Under the pieces are notes generated by a model, which saw only the letters and a program-made list of their open reading frames with translations, was not told the origin of the DNA and did not search any database. This document shows positions 45,430-57,775 of a stretch of 64,000 nucleotides of DNA, one piece after another (positions within the stretch are counted from its first letter, which is position 1; each line of letters starts with the position of its first letter). Source of the DNA: Polyangiales bacterium (GTDB lineage: Bacteria > Myxococcota_A > Polyangia > Polyangiales > JADJQN01); contig CAXNJO010000003.1 of assembly GCA_964202905.1 (NCBI GenBank), positions 544,001 through 608,000 on the forward strand, read 5' to 3'. Position numbers and translations under genes: made by a program.

Positions 45430-47934
45430 CTACTCTTCCACGCTCGACCAGAAGGCGTCGGCGCGGCGGCGGCACTCGCGGCGCGCTTCGCGGAACGCGT
45501 CGTCCGCGCGAAGCGGCCCGAGCGAGGGGCAGCGGTCGAGCCACTCGACGTCCGCGAGCCCCGCCTCGACCGCGCGCCCGAGGTAGCGCACCGCGTCCGG
45601 CACGCGCCCGAGCCCCGCGAAGATCTCGGCGCCGCTCTGCAGCGCGAGCCGGAGAAAGCGCGGGCTGACGACCGCGGGGATGAGCGCGCCGAAGATCGCC
45701 TCGCCCTCCGCGGCGCCGATGTCTCCGAGCGCGAGGCGCAGGTAGAGCGCCGAGAAACGCGCGACGGGGTCGTCGCTCTCGTCGAGCGTCGGCAGCAGCG
45801 CCCGCTGCCCCTCGACGTCGCGGTACCACACGGCGATGCGGGCCTGCAGCGCGAGGAGTTGCGCACCGCCGCCCGCGTCGTGCACCGCGAGCACCCGCCG
45901 GCTGGCCTCGCGATCGCCCGCGAGCGCGAGCGTGCGTGCGAGGTCGCGCGCGGCGACGATTAACGTCGGGTCGAGCTCGAGCGCGGCCCGGAGATGGCGC
46001 ACGCCGCGCTCGAGACGCCCCGTCTCCACCGCCATGGCGCCGAAGGCCTGGTGCGCGGCCGCGAAGGTGGGCGCGATCGCGACGGCGCGAGAGAGCGAGC
46101 GCCCGGCGCCCGCGTAATCCGAGACGTGCACCGCGTAGAGGCCCGCCGCGAGCTGCGTCTCGGCGACGTCGGGCGCGTGCAGCCGGGCGCGCTCGACGCT
46201 GCGCGCGACCGCGTCCGCGAAGCCCACCGGATCGACGGAGGACGGCGCGAACCACGCGCGCAGCGAGGCGAGCGCATGTCCAGCGAGGGCCGGCGTGAAG
46301 GAGGGCGCGCGCGCGAGCGCCTCGTCGAAGAGCGCGACCGCGCCCCCCGGCCCGTCGAGCCGCGTGAGCGCGAGCGCGCGCCGCCCGCGCATGTAGGAAT
46401 CCACCGCTTCGGCCGACGCCGCGCCGCGACGCGCGCCGACGTCGAGCGACACGCGGAGCGCCTCCGCGACGCGCCGGCTCACGCGCTCCTGCACCTCGAA
46501 GACATCCTCGAGCTGCGCGTCGAAGCGATCGCTCCACAGCTGCGTGCCGGACGCGACGTCGACGAGCCGCACGCTCAGGCGGAGCGCGTCCGCGGTGCTC
46601 TGCACGGTGCCGTCCACGACCGCGTCGACGCCGAGCGCGAGCCCGACGCGCTTCGGGTCGCGATCGTCCCGGAATCGCGCGGTCGCGGCGCTCCCTGCGA
46701 GGCGCAGCCCGCGCGTACGCGAGAGCACATCCGTCAGTTCCTCGGCGAGCCCGTCCCCCAGGTACGCGAGCTCGGCGGGGCCCCGGTATCGGAACGGCAA
46801 AACCGCGAGCGCGCGCACCGGCGCGACCGGCGGCACGCCCGACTGCGCATCCGAGGGCGCGCGCGATTCGTCGCCGGGCGTCCGCGTCGAGGCCACGCCG
46901 AGGAGCCCGCTCTCATACAGCTCCGTCCGCGCCTGCGCCTCGCCCGACGCCTCTGCGACGCCGGCCTCGCCGTCCTGCGGCGTCTCTTGCGCGCCGACCG
47001 AGAGTCCGTGAGCGCGCAGCCAGACACGCAGAGCCGCCGCGACCGCGCGGCCGTCCGCGGGGCGTCCCTCGGGCTCGCGCGAGAGGCAGGCGAGCACCAG
47101 CTCTGCGAGCGCGTCGTCGATCGCGACGGCTGCGCGCGGATCGGGCGGCGGCTGCTGGAGCCGGGCGAGCGCGGTCGCGATCGGCGTGTCGCCCCGGAAG
47201 GCGTGCGTACCGACCACCATCTCGTAGAGGAGCAAGCCGAGCGCGTAGACGTCGGTGCGCGCGTCGACGGGCAGGGCCTGCACCTGCTCGGGCGCCATGT
47301 AGAGCGGGGTGCCCACCGGGCCGAGCGTCCGGTGCAGCGAGGCCTCGTCGGCGAGGCCGCGCGCGATGCCGAAATCCGTGAGCACGACGCGGCCGGTCGC
47401 GTCGAGGAGCACGTTCGCGGGCTTGAGATCGCGGTGCACGACGCCGGCCGCGTGCGCCGCGCCGAGCCCATCGGCGACGGCGATCGCGAGGCGGACGGCG
47501 CGCTCGGGGGCGAGCTGTTTGTCGCGCTCGAGCAGCGCGTCGAGGTCGCCGCCCTCGACGTATTCCATCGTCAGGAAGTGCACGCCGGCGTGCTCGCCGA
47601 GGTCGTGGACGCGCGCGACGCACGGGTGCGAGACGCGGCGCGCGAGGCGGACCTCGCGCTTGAAGCGCTCGATGGACGCGGGGGATGGTGCCCGCGGGAA
47701 GCCGAGCTCGAGGGTCTTCAGCGCGACGCGGTCGCCGAGCAGCTCGTCGACGGCGAGGTAGACCGCGCCCATGCCGCCGCGCCCGAGCAGCCGCTCGACG
47801 CGGTAGCGCCCCGCGAACACCGCGCCCTCGCGCGGGCCGCCCGGCTGCGGCGCTTCGGGGCCCGCGGCCGCGGCGTGCTCGGCGGCGAGCGCGTCGCTGG
47901 TCGGCGGGAGTCGGGGGTCGGCGGATGGTCGCAA
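45430..47934 (-). CDS. Ser/Thr protein kinase with TolB-like and TPR domains
   Basis: LGRGGMGAVY, HRDLKPAN, TDFG, GTPLYMAPE; LAVLPF..GLAEEL..QLWSDRFD; TPRs. Confidence 0.93.
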   Translation of the reverse strand: MRPSADPRLPPTSDALAAEHAAAAGPEAPQPGGPREGAVFAGRYRVERLLGRGGMGAVYLAVDELLGDRVALKTLELGFPRAPSPASIERFKREVRLARRVSHPCVARVHDLGEHAGVHFLTMEYVEGGDLDALLERDKQLAPERAVRLAIAVADGLGAAHAAGVVHRDLKPANVLLDATGRVVLTDFGIARGLADEASLHRTLGPVGTPLYMAPEQVQALPVDARTDVYALGLLLYEMVVGTHAFRGDTPIATALARLQQPPPDPRAAVAIDDALAELVLACLSREPEGRPADGRAVAAALRVWLRAHGLSVGAQETPQDGEAGVAEASGEAQARTELYESGLLGVASTRTPGDESRAPSDAQSGVPPVAPVRALAVLPFRYRGPAELAYLGDGLAEELTDVLSRTRGLRLAGSAATARFRDDRDPKRVGLALGVDAVVDGTVQSTADALRLSVRLVDVASGTQLWSDRFDAQLEDVFEVQERVSRRVAEALRVSLDVGARRGAASAEAVDSYMRGRRALALTRLDGPGGAVALFDEALARAPSFTPALAGHALASLRAWFAPSSVDPVGFADAVARSVERARLHAPDVAETQLAAGLYAVHVSDYAGAGRSLSRAVAIAPTFAAAHQAFGAMAVETGRLERGVRHLRAALELDPTLIVAARDLARTLALAGDREASRRVLAVHDAGGGAQLLALQARIAVWYRDVEGQRALLPTLDESDDPVARFSALYLRLALGDIGAAEGEAIFGALIPAVVSPRFLRLALQSGAEIFAGLGRVPDAVRYLGRAVEAGLADVEWLDRCPSLGPLRADDAFREARRECRRRADAFWSSVEE

Positions 47935-48033
47935 GGCGCACCCACCTTACGGCCTCACGCAGGCGGCGACCATCGTCGCCGCGCGCGGCGCGCGCTGGTC
48001 AGCGCCGATCGCGGGGTTTACATTGCCGCCCAC

Positions 48034-49482
48034 ATGACGACGCTCTCCTCGCGGTACAAGGCCCCCTTCGCGCCGGGCGGGTCGGCGCCCGTCGACGCGG
48101 AGCTCGCGCGCCGGTTGCTCACGCTCGCCCTCTCACGCGGCGGCGACTACGCCGACCTCTTCTACGAATACGGCGTCTCCGGCAGCTACTCCTTCGACGA
48201 AGGCATCCTCAAGGCCGCGGGCCGCGCGGTGACGATGGGCCTCGGCGTGCGCGTCATGAAGGGCGACGCGACCGGCTACGCCTACGTCGAAGAGCTCACC
48301 CCCGAGGCGATGGACCACGCGGCGCGCACCGCGGCGCAGATCGCGGACGGCGGCGGCGCCCCCGCGCCGATCGGCGTCACGCCCCGCACGGTCGCGCGCC
48401 GCTACGAGCTCCCGCACCCGACGCTCGACGTCGCCGGCACGGAGAAGCGCGAGCTGCTCGCGCGGGCCGACCGCGTCGCGCGCGCCGAGGACCCGCGCGT
48501 CGTGCGCGTCGACGCGTCGTTCAGCGAGGAAATCCGCGAGATCCTCATCGCCTCCTCGGACGGCAAGCTCGTGCACGACGTGCAACCGCTCATGCGCTTC
48601 GGCGTGCGCGTGATCGTCGAGCACGAGGGCAAGCGGCAGTCGGGCTCGTCGGGCGGTGGCGGACGCTTCGGCATGGCCTACTTCGAGGGCCGCAGCCCCG
48701 AGTGGCACGCGAAGGAGGCCGTGCGCCAGGCCGTCGCGATGCTCGACGCGCGCGAGGCCCCCGCGGGCGAGCTGCCCGTCGTGCTCGCCCCGGGCGACAG
48801 CGGCATCCTGCTCCACGAGGCGGTCGGGCACGGGCTCGAGGCCGACTTCAACCGCAAGAAGACGAGCAACTACTCCGACGCCGTCGGCACCAAGGTCGCG
48901 AGCGAGCTCTGCACGGTGGTCGACGACGCGACGCTCGCCTTCTCGCGCGGGACGATCAACGTCGACGACGAGGGCAACGAGCCGACGAAGGCGACGCTCA
49001 TCGAGGGCGGCATCCTCCGCGGCTACATGCAGGACCGGCACTCGGCGGGCTTCTTCCACACGGCGCCGACGGGCAACGGGCGCCGCGAGTCCTTCCGCTC
49101 GCACCCGCTCCCGCGCATGACGAACACGCTGCTGCTCGCGGGCAAGGACGACCCGGCCGACATCATCCGCTCGGTCGAGCGCGGCATCTACGCGTGCAAG
49201 TTCGGCGGCGGACAGGTGGAGATCTCGAACGGCGACTTCGTGTTCTCGCTGACCGAGAGCTACCTGATCGAGAACGGGCGCATCACCGCCCCGCTCAAGG
49301 ATGTGAACCTCATCGGCAACGGCCCCGACGTCATGCGCAAGGTCGTGATGCTCGGACACGACGTCGAGGTCTCCGACGGCATCTGGACCTGCGGCAAGGA
49401 CGGGCAGTCGGTGCCCGTCGGCGTCGGCTGTCCCACCATCAAGATCTCCGCCGTGACCGTCGGCGGCTCACAGATCGGCTGA
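48034..49482 (+). CDS. tldD: Metalloprotease TldD
   Basis: GGDYADL, LLHEAVGHGLEADF, GNGRRES, PRMTNT, CGKDGQSVPVG. Confidence 0.95.
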   Translation: MTTLSSRYKAPFAPGGSAPVDAELARRLLTLALSRGGDYADLFYEYGVSGSYSFDEGILKAAGRAVTMGLGVRVMKGDATGYAYVEELTPEAMDHAARTAAQIADGGGAPAPIGVTPRTVARRYELPHPTLDVAGTEKRELLARADRVARAEDPRVVRVDASFSEEIREILIASSDGKLVHDVQPLMRFGVRVIVEHEGKRQSGSSGGGGRFGMAYFEGRSPEWHAKEAVRQAVAMLDAREAPAGELPVVLAPGDSGILLHEAVGHGLEADFNRKKTSNYSDAVGTKVASELCTVVDDATLAFSRGTINVDDEGNEPTKATLIEGGILRGYMQDRHSAGFFHTAPTGNGRRESFRSHPLPRMTNTLLLAGKDDPADIIRSVERGIYACKFGGGQVEISNGDFVFSLTESYLIENGRITAPLKDVNLIGNGPDVMRKVVMLGHDVEVSDGIWTCGKDGQSVPVGVGCPTIKISAVTVGGSQIG

Positions 49483-49487
49483 CGCGC

Positions 49488-50867
49488 ATGTCCATGAAAT
49501 CCAACGGAAAAGTGGATGCGCTCCTCGGCCTCGGGGACCGCATCGTGTCGATGGCGCGCGCGGCCGGCGCCGACGTCGCCGAGTGCAGCGTGCGCGAGGG
49601 CGATCACCTCAGCGTGAAGGTCCGCATGGGCGCGCCCGAGCTCGTCGAGGAGGCGGGCTCGCGCGCCGTGGGGCTCCGCGTGATGCTCGGGCAGCAGGTC
49701 GCGGTGACGTACACGAGCGACCTCACCGACGCGGGCCTGCAGCGCTTCGTCGAGGACGCGCTCGAGCTCGCGAAGCTCTCGCAGCCCGACCCGTTCGCGG
49801 GGCCGCCGGATCCGTCGCTCCTCTCGTCGCGCGCGGACCACGCGGACCTCGACCTCTTCGACCCCGAGATGCGCGCCCTCGACGCGGCCGAGGCGCTGCG
49901 GCGCGCCAAGGCCGGCGAGGCCGCGGCCTTCGCCGTCGACCCGCGCATCACGAACAGCGAGGGCGGCTCGTTCACGCGGGCAGCGGGCGCGAGCGCGCTC
50001 GTCACCTCGGGCGGTTTCCGCGGCGGCGGCGAGGGCACGTACGCCTCGATCGTCGTCTCGCCCATCGCCGAGGACGAGGGTGGCAAGAAGCGCAGCGGCC
50101 ACCACTGGGCGGCGCGCCGCAAGCTCGCCGGGCTCGAGGACGCCGGCGACGTCGGCCGCGAAGCCGCACGCCGCACCCTCGCGCGGCTCGGCGCACGCAA
50201 GGTCGAGACGCAGGAGGTCGCGGTCATCTTCGATCAGGACGCCGCGCGCGCGATGCTCGGCCTGCTCGCGGGCGCCGTGAACGGCAGCGCGGTCTGGCGG
50301 AAGTCGAGCTACCTCGCCGACCGCGAGGGCACGCGCGTCGCCTCCGAGCACGTGACGGTCATCGACGATCCGCTCCTCGTCGGCGGTCCCGGCTCGCGCC
50401 CCTTCGACGGCGAGGGCCTGCTCTCGCGCCGCAACGTCGTGGTCGAGAACGGCATCCTCCGCACCTTCCTGCTCGACACCTACAGCGCGCGGAAGCTCGG
50501 CAAGCAGAGCACCGCGAGCGCCTCGCGCGGCTCCTCGGGCGGCGTCGGCCCGGGCAGCACGAACTTCATCCTGCAGCCGGGGCCGCTCAGCGCCGACGCG
50601 CTGCTCCGCGCGACGCCGCGCGCGCTCTACGTCACCGACATGATGGGCTTCGGCTTCAACGCGGTGACGGGCGACTTCTCGCGCGGCGCGAGCGGCTTCT
50701 GGGTCGAACATGGAGAAAAGGTCTTTCCGGTGAGCGAGGTCACCATCTCGCTCAACGTCGACCAGATCTTCCAGCGCATCGACGCCGTCGCGAACGACCT
50801 CGACCTGCGGACCTCGGTCGCATCGCCGACGTTCCGCGTGAGCGCGATGACGCTCGCGGGCAAGTGA
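49488..50867 (+). CDS. pmbA: TldE/PmbA protein
   Basis: SRPFDGEG, TGDFSRGASGF, PVSEVTI; no HExxxH; follows tldD. Confidence 0.93.
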   Translation: MSMKSNGKVDALLGLGDRIVSMARAAGADVAECSVREGDHLSVKVRMGAPELVEEAGSRAVGLRVMLGQQVAVTYTSDLTDAGLQRFVEDALELAKLSQPDPFAGPPDPSLLSSRADHADLDLFDPEMRALDAAEALRRAKAGEAAAFAVDPRITNSEGGSFTRAAGASALVTSGGFRGGGEGTYASIVVSPIAEDEGGKKRSGHHWAARRKLAGLEDAGDVGREAARRTLARLGARKVETQEVAVIFDQDAARAMLGLLAGAVNGSAVWRKSSYLADREGTRVASEHVTVIDDPLLVGGPGSRPFDGEGLLSRRNVVVENGILRTFLLDTYSARKLGKQSTASASRGSSGGVGPGSTNFILQPGPLSADALLRATPRALYVTDMMGFGFNAVTGDFSRGASGFWVEHGEKVFPVSEVTISLNVDQIFQRIDAVANDLDLRTSVASPTFRVSAMTLAGK

Positions 50868-53146: not shown

Positions 53147-54273
53147 GCCGCGGACGCACGCTGGTGACGGGCTTCCCCTCGAGTTTCCTCGCGCGGCGCG
53201 TGGTGCAGAAGCTCCTCGCCGCCGAGCCCACGACGCGGCTCACCTGCGTGGTGCAGGCGAAGTTCCGCGCCCGCGCGGAGGAGGCGCTCCGCGGGCTCGG
53301 CGACGCCGAGCGGCGCCGCGTCGAGCTCGTCGAGGGCGACATCGCCGCGATGGACCTCGGGCTCTCCGGGCGCGAGTTCCGCGAGCTCGCGCGCGAGGTC
53401 GAGGTCATCCACCACTGCGCGGCGGTCACGTACCTAGGCGCCGATCGCCGCGCCGCCGAGCGCGTGAACGTCGGCGGCACGCGCGAGGTGGTCGAGTTGG
53501 CCGAGGCCGCGACGAACCTCTCGCGCCTCGTGCACTGGTCGACCGCGCTCGTGTCCGGCGCACGCCGCGGCTACGTGCTCGAGGGCGAGCTGCTCGCGCC
53601 GTCGGGGTTCCGCAACGCGGTCGAGGAGACGCGCTTCCGCGCCGAGCGCATCGTGCTCGAGGCGGGCGCGCGGGTGCCGACGACGGTGCTGCGCCCTGCG
53701 ACGATCGTGGGCGACTCGCACACCGGCGAGATCGACCGCTTCGAGGGCCCGTACCTGCTCGTGCAGCTGCTCCTCAGCGCGCCGAGCGATCTGCGCCTGC
53801 CGCTCCCCGGCCGCGGCGACATCCCGCTGAACCTCGTGCCCATCGACTACGCCGTCGACGCAGGCTGCGCGATCGCCCGCGACCCGCGCTCGGTCGGGCG
53901 CACCTTTCACCTCGTCGATCCACACCCGCTCACGACGCGCGCGGTGTTCGAGCGGCTCGCGCACGAGGCGGGGCGCCCCTCGCCGCGCGGCTCCGTCCCG
54001 ACGCGCGTCGCGGCCGCGCTCCTGCGCGCGCCCGGCCTCGATCGGCTCGCGCAGGCGCCGCGCGCCTTCCTCGAGCAGCTCGGCACCGAGGTCGTGTACG
54101 ACGCGCGCAACACCGAGGAGTTGCTCGCGCACACCGGCATCGCGTGCCCGCCCTTCGATCGCTATGTGGGCACGCTCGTCGACGCCGTGCGCCGCCAGCA
54201 GGCCGCGCGGCGCGCGCAGGTCGCGACCGAGCTCGAGGCCGTGCCCGAGCACGACGACCCGCTCGCGGATTGA
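53143..54273 (+). CDS. Extended SDR oxidoreductase (male-sterility/thioester-reductase-like)
   Basis: LVTGFPSSFLA, EGDI, HCAA, VNVGGT, RPATIVGDS, VPIDY; coupled to coaE. Confidence 0.85.
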   Translation: MSRGRTLVTGFPSSFLARRVVQKLLAAEPTTRLTCVVQAKFRARAEEALRGLGDAERRRVELVEGDIAAMDLGLSGREFRELAREVEVIHHCAAVTYLGADRRAAERVNVGGTREVVELAEAATNLSRLVHWSTALVSGARRGYVLEGELLAPSGFRNAVEETRFRAERIVLEAGARVPTTVLRPATIVGDSHTGEIDRFEGPYLLVQLLLSAPSDLRLPLPGRGDIPLNLVPIDYAVDAGCAIARDPRSVGRTFHLVDPHPLTTRAVFERLAHEAGRPSPRGSVPTRVAAALLRAPGLDRLAQAPRAFLEQLGTEVVYDARNTEELLAHTGIACPPFDRYVGTLVDAVRRQQAARRAQVATELEAVPEHDDPLAD

Positions 54274-54480
54274 GCCTCACGCACGCTCGACGAGCCTCTT
54301 CGCGCCGGCGCGAAGCGACGTGGTTTCAACCACTTGTGGCCGAATGCCACGCTCGTGCGCGGGAGTCCGAATCCGGCATCGTCGCGATGTTTGGGAGTTT
54401 GTTCGACGTCGCAGAACTTCGCGTGACCCCACGCGTCGGAGGCTCCACGGCGCGCAGAGACGCGCGCGAAGGAGCCCGCG

Positions 54481-55719
54481 GTGGACGTCACGCTCGTACT
54501 CACGCACGACTGCAACCTCGGCTGCGCCTACTGCTACGCGGGCGCGAAGTTCCAGAAGCGCATGAGCCCGGAGACGGCGTCGCGCGCGATCGCGCTCGCC
54601 TTCACCGACGGCGCGCCCCGCGTGCAAATCTCGTTCTTCGGCGGGGAGCCGCTGCTCGCGTGGGACGAGCTCGTGCGCTCGGCCGAAGAGGCGCGCGCGC
54701 TGGCCGAAGCGCGCGGCGTCGCGCTCGTGATGTCGGTGACGACGAACGGCACGCTGCTCGACGCCGACCGCGCCGCGACCCTCGACGCGCTCGGCGTCTA
54801 CGTCGCGCTCTCGATCGACGGCGTCCGCGAGGCGCACGACGCGGGGCGCCCGCGCGCAGGCGGCGGCTCGAGCTTCGATCAGGTCGCGCGCGGCCTCGAG
54901 GTGCTGCTGCGGCGCGGGACGCCCTTCGAGACGATCTCCGTCGTCACGCCGCAGAACGCACACCTCGTCGGCGCATCCGTCGAATGGCTCTTCGCGCAGG
55001 GCGTGCCGCGCGTGGGGCTCAACCCCTGCTACGAGGCGGCCTTCGACGACGCAGCGCTCGCGGCGTGGGAGCGCGGGCTCGAGCACGCGGCCGAGGTCGT
55101 CGCGGGTCATTTCCGCAGCGGGCGCGTCGTCTCGCTGACGACCTTCGACAACAAGATCCTCGCGGCCGTGAAGGGCGGGCTCTCGGCGGGCGATCGCTGC
55201 TCGCTCGGCACGCGCAGCGTGGCCGTCGCGCCGGGCGGGAACCTCTACGCCTGCGAGCGGCTCGTCGGCGAGGACGACGACGCCTCGCTCGTGATCGGCC
55301 ACGTCGACGACTGGGCGGGCCCCGCGGGCGAGGCGTGCGCGCGCGGCCCGGTGAACCCGGCGTGCGAGCCCTGCGGCGAGCGCTGGCGTTGCAGCAGCCA
55401 CTGCGCCTGCGCGAACCGCGCGGAGACGGGGCGCACCGACGTCGCGGGCGGCACGCAGTGCTGGCACGAGCGCACGACGGCGCGCATCGCCGATGGCCTC
55501 GCCGAGACGCTCTGGGCCGAGCAGAACCCGGCGTTTCTCGCGTGGTTCTACGGGCGCTCGCTGCCCGCCGGGACGACCGCCAACGGCGCCCACGAAGCGC
55601 ACGCGTCGGCACACGCGAGCACCCCCATGCGCACGCCGCACGAGCCGCGACGAAGCGTCGGACGCATCGATCGGCGGGCGCCCGTGACCGCACGAAAGCG
55701 CCTCGTGGTGGTGCGCTGA
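54481..55719 (+). CDS. Radical SAM/SPASM-domain protein (anSME/peptide maturase-like)
   Basis: AAGGAG RBS; CNLGCAYC, FFGGEPLL, TTNG, SIDG; SPASM Cys CSLG..GNLYAC..CEPC..CSSHCAC..C. Confidence 0.93.
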   Translation: MDVTLVLTHDCNLGCAYCYAGAKFQKRMSPETASRAIALAFTDGAPRVQISFFGGEPLLAWDELVRSAEEARALAEARGVALVMSVTTNGTLLDADRAATLDALGVYVALSIDGVREAHDAGRPRAGGGSSFDQVARGLEVLLRRGTPFETISVVTPQNAHLVGASVEWLFAQGVPRVGLNPCYEAAFDDAALAAWERGLEHAAEVVAGHFRSGRVVSLTTFDNKILAAVKGGLSAGDRCSLGTRSVAVAPGGNLYACERLVGEDDDASLVIGHVDDWAGPAGEACARGPVNPACEPCGERWRCSSHCACANRAETGRTDVAGGTQCWHERTTARIADGLAETLWAEQNPAFLAWFYGRSLPAGTTANGAHEAHASAHASTPMRTPHEPRRSVGRIDRRAPVTARKRLVVVR

Positions 55720-55784
55720 GCCGCCTCGCCCGACTTCCATCTTTTCCAGAATCACGTCCTCCATCGCTCGATCACGGAGCCGCC

Positions 55785-56504
55785 ATGACCGCGCCACGCC
55801 CTGTCCGCCGCAAGCCCGTCGCCGCACCGCTGGCCTCCTCGCGCACGCTCGCGCGCCCGCTCGCACCGCACGCCGTCACGGACGCGCCGCGCGGCTATCC
55901 GACGGCCGCCGCGCTCTTCGCCTCGGGCGGGCTCACGACGCAGCTCGGCGCCTCGCTGCGCGCGCTGCTCGGCCCCGCGGCGCTGATGGGCGCCGTGGGC
56001 GTCGCCGGCTGCGGGCCGCTCGACGCGCCGCCGAAGGCGGATCCCGCCGCAGACGTCTCGCCGGGCGACGCGAAGACGCCGCCCGACAAACCGGACGATG
56101 CCGCATCACCGCCGGACGACGCGCCGGTCTCGGGGACGCCCTCCATCGTGCTCACGCCGCTGCCGCCTCAGCCGCCTCCGATCCGGCCGCCCGTGCCGCA
56201 GGACGTCGACACCGGCCGCCCGCCACCCCGTCCGTGGACGCCGCCGGTCGTCTCCGGTCCGCTGCCGCCTCTGGTGCGCCCCCCGATCGCGCGCGGCGTC
56301 ATGCAGCACGTCGAGCCCGAGCCCCCGAGGCCGGAGCCCATGCCCCCGCGGCCCGAGCCGATCCTCCCGCGTCGGGACCCGATCCCGCTCGCGGGCGCGC
56401 CGATGCCCGTGCATCCGCCCCCGCTGCCGCCGCCTCCGATCCATCCTGCCCCCCACGCCCCGCAGGCGCCGGGGCGCATCATGGTGCGCCCGGACGTCGA
56501 ATGA
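55785..56504 (+). CDS. Proline-rich putative lipoprotein, candidate radical SAM substrate
   Basis: Tail of ORF 52506..56504; GGAG RBS before ATG 55785; PRGYPT, VAGC lipobox (Cys76), Pro-rich body with repeated G..M motifs. Confidence 0.75.
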   Translation: MTAPRPVRRKPVAAPLASSRTLARPLAPHAVTDAPRGYPTAAALFASGGLTTQLGASLRALLGPAALMGAVGVAGCGPLDAPPKADPAADVSPGDAKTPPDKPDDAASPPDDAPVSGTPSIVLTPLPPQPPPIRPPVPQDVDTGRPPPRPWTPPVVSGPLPPLVRPPIARGVMQHVEPEPPRPEPMPPRPEPILPRRDPIPLAGAPMPVHPPPLPPPPIHPAPHAPQAPGRIMVRPDVE

Positions 56505-56608
56505 CCGCGTCGTGCGGCGCCTGCCTCTGACCGCGCCGATCGCCGTGCGAAACAGGCCGATCACGCCGTGCGACGCGGCGCGGAGCGCGTGCTAGCGTCG
56601 CCCCGGCC

Positions 56609-57775
<1,167 letters not shown>

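Follow-up and report, generated by a model that had tools for sequence, protein, structure and literature searches.

The stretch of DNA analysed here, referred to as the window, spans 64,000 nucleotides of a Polyangiales bacterium (contig CAXNJO010000003.1 of assembly GCA_964202905.1). Within it, the gene of a radical S-adenosylmethionine (SAM) enzyme with a SPASM domain is followed, after 65 nt, by the start of a second gene, the partner, which encodes a predicted prolipoprotein whose Pro-rich body carries short motifs around a glycine, the cassettes. Related pairs recur side by side in many lineages, and one clade of enzymes carries cassettes as part of its own chain. The partner is probably the substrate of the enzyme, with its leader docking, its cassettes being modified and the protein then being exported and lipidated. 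The features of the locus are listed below, where RRE stands for the recognition element of RiPPs (peptides made on the ribosome and modified after translation) and fused homologues are enzymes with a cassette tail.

54481 to 55719, plus strand: radical SAM/SPASM enzyme of 412 residues; Pfam Radical_SAM, no N-terminal RRE, unnamed family
54511 to 54534, plus strand: CxxxCxxC SAM-cluster motif (C11, C15, C18), kept without exception by the 102 non-fused and the 20 fused homologues
55198 to 55461, plus strand: SPASM domain; its eight cysteines (240, 258, 295, 298, 304, 308, 310, 327), a PqqE-like CxC among them, are each kept by 100-102 of the 102 non-fused homologues
55450 to 55551, plus strand: C-terminal helices 324-346 and 350-357 (E330, D338, F352, Y357), candidate leader-docking surface on the structural model
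55776 to 55779, plus strand: ribosome-binding site GGAG, recognized by sequence; identical context at locus L073
55785 to 56504, plus strand: partner gene, 239 residues; predicted prolipoprotein and likely substrate
55785 to 56009, plus strand: leader and signal of 75 residues, with a basic start, the Y-P tag, a helix and a hydrophobic stretch
55896 to 55901, plus strand: Y38-P39 tag, invariant in 12 of 12 aligned close partners
56001 to 56012, plus strand: lipobox VAGC with Cys76, lipidation predicted
56250 to 56264, plus strand: weak candidate cassette (Gly158), retained in L073, low score
56286 to 56303, plus strand: cassette 1 (Gly171), a divergent copy; Gly column at least 90% conserved
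56388 to 56405, plus strand: cassette 2 (Gly204), with the top matrix score of 3.9
56466 to 56483, plus strand: cassette 3 (Gly230); Gly column at least 90% conserved, matrix score 0.6

A script run on the translation recovered the anatomy that an earlier note had described from the letters, namely PRGYPT at residues 35-40, VAGC at 73-76 with Cys76, and all five quoted cassettes, whose glycines lie at positions 117, 158, 171, 204 and 230. Cys76 is the sole cysteine of the partner and Tyr38 its sole tyrosine. The mature part consists of 36% proline and holds one Trp and neither Phe nor Tyr. The G+C fraction at third codon positions (GC3) of the open reading frame (ORF) is 0.90, and 5 nt separate GGAG from the ATG. 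The note had allowed for a true start further downstream that would remove the Y-P segment. Ahead of Cys76, however, the only in-frame ATG, GTG or TTG codons are 1, 68 and 71, so that no alternative start drops Y-P yet leaves a usable signal, and Y-P is retained in the orthologue at locus L073. There, beside an enzyme of 87% identity, the partner shares the start context, the leader, the cysteine and the three main cassettes. No match was obtained for the partner in Pfam, NCBIfam or the Protein Atlas, nor for the relatives tested in Pfam and NCBIfam.

In the partner, the 19-residue window of maximum hydropathy begins at residue 61, and a lipobox, a hydrophobic stretch and a conserved cysteine are present behind an unusually long n-region. 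The cysteine is located 38-44 residues past the tyrosine in 19/19 close partners, and the leader proline is invariant in 83/83 leaders. The PRGYPT motif proposed in the note survived in part: close relatives conserve Y-P only, and the family motif was cut down to this pair, which distant members extend to P-x-Y-P. The possibility that the motifs are not conserved among orthologues could be dismissed, as Y-P and the cysteine are kept and the glycines of cassettes 1 and 3 are at least 90% conserved. Some close leaders also contain a lasso-type W-x-x-P-x-V stretch, which is absent from the window partner.

Behind the leader, two types of body were found, low-complexity cassette arrays and a globular domain. 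A profile of the Y-P region matched 101 frames (87 distinct) of the 9012 frames in enzyme loci. At E<=0.001 it matched 1107 clusters, formed at 50% identity, and among the best 150 of these the match was nearly always N-terminal. The only match among the 44,865 frames of the source genome was the partner gene itself, with the runner-up at E 0.074. The source genome encodes TatC, Lgt and LspA; Lgt-family matches number seven (contigs C1, C2, C4, C7 and C10 of G000, with two adjacent pieces on C4), and there is one for LspA. A twin-arginine motif of the RRx[FL] type follows Y-P in 1/14 near (close), 19/25 far (distant) and 5/47 globular partners, and the RR at residues 8-9 of the window partner is not conserved among close partners. 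Export signals thus differ within the family, and the window partner may take the Tat (twin-arginine translocation) route or another one. In one subtype (L191, L192, L193, L029), a short helical insert follows the cysteine and a single cassette lies near the C-terminus; the partner of L029 has neither Y-P nor a lipobox.

The enzyme combines CxxxCxxC with the seven-cysteine SPASM motif and thereby falls under the definition of a radical SAM/SPASM maturase. Among the best 25 of its 72 NCBIfam matches none was above cut-off; the best was PapB (NF047865) with 165 bits against a cut-off of 340, and five relatives scored 157-232 bits, likewise below 340. The structural model reached a predicted local distance difference test (pLDDT) score of 93.8, and its closest folds, CteB, anSME and ChlB, are all peptide or protein maturases. 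Since CxxxCxxC begins at residue 11 and the model is alignable to CteB only from CteB residue 94, the enzyme is without an N-terminal RRE. The residues E330, D338, F352 and Y357 on the C-terminal helices are kept by 99-100 of the 102 non-fused enzymes, but the fused set of 20 does not conserve them. An export signal is absent from the enzyme, whereas the cassettes follow one.

With CteB as top fold match and PapB as top profile, a thioether cross-link of the CteB/PapB type comes to mind, for which Cys76 or an occasional mature cysteine would be the donor and the cassettes would provide the acceptors. One mature cysteine is indeed found in 7/14 close partners, and G-C is well conserved in the globular branch. 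Such a cross-link is nevertheless very unlikely: a mature cysteine is absent from 7/14 near and 12/25 far partners and from the window partner, where zero cysteines follow Cys76, in line with the note's argument against thioethers. A single cysteine is too few for three to six cassettes, and cross-linking Cys76 would block lipidation. The eighth SPASM cysteine is invariant and, by analogy, probably occupies the auxiliary cluster I (Aux I) site that is open in CteB. The SPASM CxC would then indicate a PqqE-like, fully ligated Aux I as opposed to the open site of CteB, as both are described in the accessible parts of PMC6231123 and PMC5715301.

Enzyme homologues were collected from genomes and metagenomes. 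The closest named ones belong to Polyangiales, Sandaracinaceae and Myxococcota, and the distant ones to Planctomycetota, Bacillota, Hydrogenedentes, Kiritimatiellae and others. Beside enzymes of at least 60% identity, the same kind of gene adjoins in 7/9 cases with adequate flanks, the window included. The linkage was counted at the 67 non-fused loci whose flanks measured 1200 nt or more on each side: a leader-profile match was present at 46 of them, and at 24 of the 45 loci outside the profile seeds. At 13 of the 21 leader-negative loci, a partner-like gene was recognized by eye, and no further conserved neighbour of the enzyme was visible in the loci examined. In genome G002, enzyme and partner lie on separate contigs, with the partner beside the short-chain dehydrogenase/reductase (SDR) gene that precedes the enzyme in the window, and G016 and G025 hold second, unlinked leader-bearing partners. 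Leader matches in G004, G024, G026 and G054 were inspected and were not family partners. For the window partner alone, which is without a strict family cassette, a chance adjacency of a low-complexity lipoprotein and an unrelated enzyme might be argued. Its probability is negligible in view of the linkage across many lineages, the fusion and the leader conservation, and it was ruled out by the leader-profile linkage together with the excess of cassettes over shuffled sequences.

The cassette motif of the family reads aliphatic-x-Gly-[DEGR]-aliphatic, usually with Pro next. For the near, far and fused sets it was defined after the sequences had been seen, and an out-of-sample set was added afterwards. 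The fragment L067 was excluded from every motif count, and the poly-Gly protein L165 was excluded from logo, matrix and Met counts and included in the 25-sequence far test. We counted 21 cassettes in 13 close partners (1.5 expected), 27 in 25 distant partners (3.6 expected) and 33 in 20 fused enzyme tails (3.3 expected), numbers that were reached in 0/1000 shuffles in each set. Controls with a shifted register remained near chance, with the fused tails as one exception (9/1000). Seven proteins found by the leader alone after the motif had been fixed contained 15 cassettes versus 1.3 expected, while 218 other Pro-rich segments of the source genome showed no excess (11 versus 10.4).

With the family weight matrix, the window cassettes LAGAPM, APGRIM and ARGVM scored 3.9, 0.6 and -12, so that two reach or exceed the null's 95th percentile (0.4) and one is poor. 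The glycine of ARGVM falls in a column that is 90% conserved, and the L073 version of this cassette scores 1.8. PVSGTP was rejected as a cassette, its glycine being lost in L073; VVSGPLP is present in L073 too and scores poorly against the matrix. The pattern G-x(1,2)-M, chosen post hoc, occurs three times in the window partner versus 0.4 expected (2/1000 shuffles). With Met at +2/+3 in 2/29 near, 13/54 far and 20/38 fused cassettes, Met is optional, and Gly..Met was rejected as the motif. What remains of the proposal that Gly cassettes are repeated modification sites is a predicted modification at a Gly-centred, not a Gly..Met, motif, backed by the motif enrichment and the natural enzyme-cassette fusions, with PVSGTP being spurious. 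In the partners of L152, L154, L155, L162 and L032, cassettes occur at both ends of a small folded domain, the last one at the extreme C-terminus.

Natural fusions were found in 20 enzymes of 35-40% identity, in which the chain runs on from the SPASM domain through a basic stretch and a hydrophobic helix to a Pro-rich tail full of cassettes. In a FastTree phylogeny of 123 rows with one outgroup, they form one clade (support 0.999), grouped with the window clade and one further enzyme (support 0.892). None of the 20 fused loci has a leader-bearing neighbour, and His9 is common to the fused (20/20) and the cassette-branch enzymes (29/29). The fused clade thus lost the leader jointly with the E330/D338/F352/Y357 motif, as expected if the C-terminal helices are where the tag docks, although this is a correlation from one event and no test of binding. 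The clade fits, and supports, the cassettes as likely substrate and the leader as putative docking tag. The note's proposal of the Y-P leader as docking site gains from this loss, and from the retention of leader-bearing partners in trans, while the binding itself is a prediction. A model of the fused enzyme at L045, computed with the 20-row alignment, was uninformative on docking, with a mean pLDDT of 66.7, a tail mostly below 50 and a confidence for the cassettes that did not exceed that of the surrounding poly-Pro. Two or three tandem fused enzyme-tail genes occur in L044 (976-5569), L105 (1551-5496) and L107 (1061-4063), some of them with long His-Glu dipeptide tracts ahead of the hydrophobic helix.

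In the globular branch, the domain is preceded by HGxGxGxx-G-C-[VI]-x-[VIM]-x-P-P. Of 141 such segments, 114 have the Cys form, with Gly ahead of Cys in 112, and 22 are Cys-free at the site, mostly Gly-containing variants by eye. True cassettes occupy the same site in some leader-bearing proteins; among them, the distant P0139 has the six residues of window cassette 2. The common denominator is therefore Gly followed by an aliphatic residue two positions on, not Cys. The globular body itself (e.g. L043 5827-6618) matched nothing in Pfam or NCBIfam. It contains a D-G-x-D...I-A-V-E-F stretch that presumably resembles a PD-(D/E)xK-like core, and one to four paralogues of these partners can lie beside one enzyme (L054).

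Regarding the mechanism, we propose that the Y-P tag docks on the C-terminal helices of the enzyme, which would stand in for an RRE. The enzyme would act in the cytoplasm, prior to export, because it is signal-less and the cassettes lie downstream of the signal. A 5'-deoxyadenosyl radical may abstract the hydrogen from the Gly α-carbon, and the fully cysteine-ligated auxiliary cluster may take one more electron, giving an iminium that a neighbouring group could trap. An in-chain trap would correspond to -2 Da per cassette. The α-carbon of glycine is favoured, since no residue but Gly is fixed and its neighbours are too varied for side-chain chemistry; as the exact chemistry, radical oxidation of this carbon to a trapped iminium is put forward tentatively. 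In the globular branch, where Cys follows Gly, the thiol could be the trap and a thiomorpholine-type ring could be the product. The accessible text of PMC13361665 describes rings from the α-carbon to the adjacent residue in threoglucins and a thiomorpholine ring in enteropeptins. Export, lipidation of Cys76 and signal cleavage are predicted to discard the leader, so that no dedicated peptidase or transporter would be needed, and the product would be a membrane-anchored, Pro-rich tether displaying several modified sites.

The main rival to glycine oxidation is chemistry of the same system on the aliphatic residues at -2 and +2 (epimerisation, desaturation or cyclopropane formation), for which the glycine would be needed for steric reasons only. 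Around the cassette glycine, enrichment is highest at -2 and +2, and the alternation of aliphatic, Gly and aliphatic would suit alternating D-residues. Radical SAM epimerases such as PoyD and EpeE use a cysteine as H-atom donor, and the enzyme has no conserved spare cysteine for this role, unless C310. As far as the accessible texts tell, an invariant Gly flanks the modified residue in TvgB, TigE and PlpX (PMC9062424, PMC10878394, PMC10373908). Given how varied the aliphatic neighbours are, we regard this option as rather unlikely.

Several results weigh against the partner as a substrate modified at its glycines. The window partner contains zero strict matches to the family motif, i.e. its cassettes are divergent. 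None of the 7 loci of enzymes with 47-60% identity yielded a leader match, and in eight genomes with such enzymes the close-partner profile matched nothing genome-wide; weak matches of a wider profile there were inspected and were not partners. As the leader profile overlooks some real neighbours, these blanks are no proof of absence. The short lipoproteins next to the 54-59%-identical enzymes of L012 (2958-3269), L015 (2796-3179) and L027 (3696-4019) have a leader with Tyr-Ala or Tyr-Gln in place of Tyr-Pro and no cassette. Genome G001 holds four scattered leader-bearing proteins with no enzyme found in an assembly that is 80% complete. The unlinked partner of G002 matches neither form of the motif, and the unlinked partners show a weak cassette excess (5 versus 2.0, 89/2000 shuffles, one row mis-parsed). 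Furthermore, as the fused enzymes form a single clade, the fusion is one evolutionary event, and without several Aux II cysteines these enzymes may act differently. The barrel residues differ between globular and cassette-branch enzymes, so that one chemistry for both branches is not assured. Finally, CxC alone is no bar to thioethers, with SkfB as the counterexample that has CxC and still makes them (context of PMC6231123/PMC5715301, in their accessible parts).

That some close enzymes have no detectable partner would also suit cassettes that are unmodified binding motifs, with the partner serving as membrane tether or regulator and the true substrate located elsewhere. The pattern aliphatic-x-Gly-x-aliphatic looks like a short beta-strand docking motif as well. 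However, a signal-less enzyme could meet cassettes behind a signal only before export, its nearest folds are all peptide or protein maturases, and the loci examined showed no conserved neighbour besides the partner. We therefore consider this explanation improbable and retain the partner as the probable substrate.

Several known systems share single traits with this pair. For DAG-RiPPs (DybA/DybH and relatives), the accessible text of PMC13056109 describes MNIO (multinuclear non-haem iron-dependent oxidative) enzymes acting on a Cys motif, expects modification to be leader-independent or follower-guided, and does not mention radical SAM/SPASM enzymes. As predicted for the partner, their precursors combine a lipoprotein signal with modification in the cytoplasm and lipidation by the general pathway; unlike them, the partner bears its conserved tag in front of the signal, and its putative target is free of Cys. 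CteB (PDB 5wgg/5why) and PapB differ from the enzyme in having seven SPASM cysteines instead of eight, an RRE and a cysteine in the substrate core. TvgB and TigE are likewise SPASM enzymes with repeated aliphatic/Gly motifs free of Cys and aromatics, as far as PMC9062424 and PMC10878394 are accessible. The present enzyme, in contrast, has no RRE, the aliphatic residue lies two positions from Gly and is not adjacent, and the likely substrate is large and predicted to be exported. The GYW motif of cyclopropyl synthases, as given in the accessible text of PMC10878394, was found in 0/122 homologues.

PqqE probably shares the CxC ligation, and no fused RRE was aligned in the PqqE, anSME and ChlB matches. 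anSME modifies whole proteins, and the ChlB structure contains the leader of its precursor according to the entry title. All three differ from the present pair in their substrates; here a cyclophane would have no aromatic residue to form from, and no partner resembling PqqD was seen. Triceptide cyclophane synthases act on a three-residue motif with an aromatic residue, and the cassette columns hold zero aromatics. TIGR04133/TIGR04134 is a radical SAM-lipoprotein system. Like this system and the PlpX spliceases, the present pair joins a radical SAM gene to one for a predicted lipoprotein in which Gly-centred motifs recur; TIGR04133 was not among the best 25 of the 72 NCBIfam matches of the enzyme. 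Spliceases follow an XYG rule in the core (PMC10373908, accessible part), whereas the cassettes have no Tyr before Gly, the preceding residue is free, and YG occurs in only 1/14 near and 2/25 far mature regions. The window partner has no XYG, and its sole Tyr38 precedes Pro, so the note was right to set splicease chemistry aside. By their sequences, enzyme and partner belong to none of the PapB/CteB, splicease, cyclopropyl synthase and triceptide groups. In its proposed mode of action, the enzyme resembles peptide maturases that are guided by a leader, and it would yield a hybrid of lipoprotein and RiPP. At L188 (1147-1806, minus strand), a lipoprotein-like protein with six Ala-Tyr-Gly-Ala repeats in Pro/Gly spacers lies beside a different radical SAM gene and is likely a splicease-type parallel with the same architecture.

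No published description of the system was found in a literature search that reached few subscription journals; the 22 predicted pathways in the supplement of PMC9062424 could include it. The present locus contributes a cassette branch without Cys, the clade of fused enzymes and the partners in trans, and these shift the likely target from Cys to Gly. It is conceivable, though doubtful at present, that this RRE-less radical SAM family performs an undescribed, Cys-free modification of the glycine backbone on exported, membrane-anchored proteins, with a disposable Y-P tag acting in cis or in trans and one clade having turned into a membrane protein that modifies itself at cassettes of its own. 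If true, the lipoprotein-RiPP logic would extend from MNIO to radical SAM enzymes, the chemistry would be new in acting on residues that lack a reactive side chain, and a leader ahead of a signal peptide would be an arrangement unexpected by the DAG-RiPP paper in its accessible text (PMC13056109). A short tag and a five-residue cassette would also make a portable modification for surface proteins. With its 1107 leader clusters the family is large, and the system comprises two genes, or one in the natural fusions.

The remaining neighbours of the pair, encoding dephospho-CoA kinase, the SDR, an ArsA/Get3-like ATPase and GlmU, look like housekeeping context. A promoter and terminator scan of 54250-56650 found nothing, and nothing was expected either. 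Elsewhere in the window, at 45994-50867, two adjoining frames have C-terminal parts that resemble a TldD/PmbA-type pair by eye. In the same genome (G000), several radical SAM genes are clustered on contig C2 (686834-702894), one of them HxsB-like, with a short ORF of Gly-Ser-His repeats upstream (L003).
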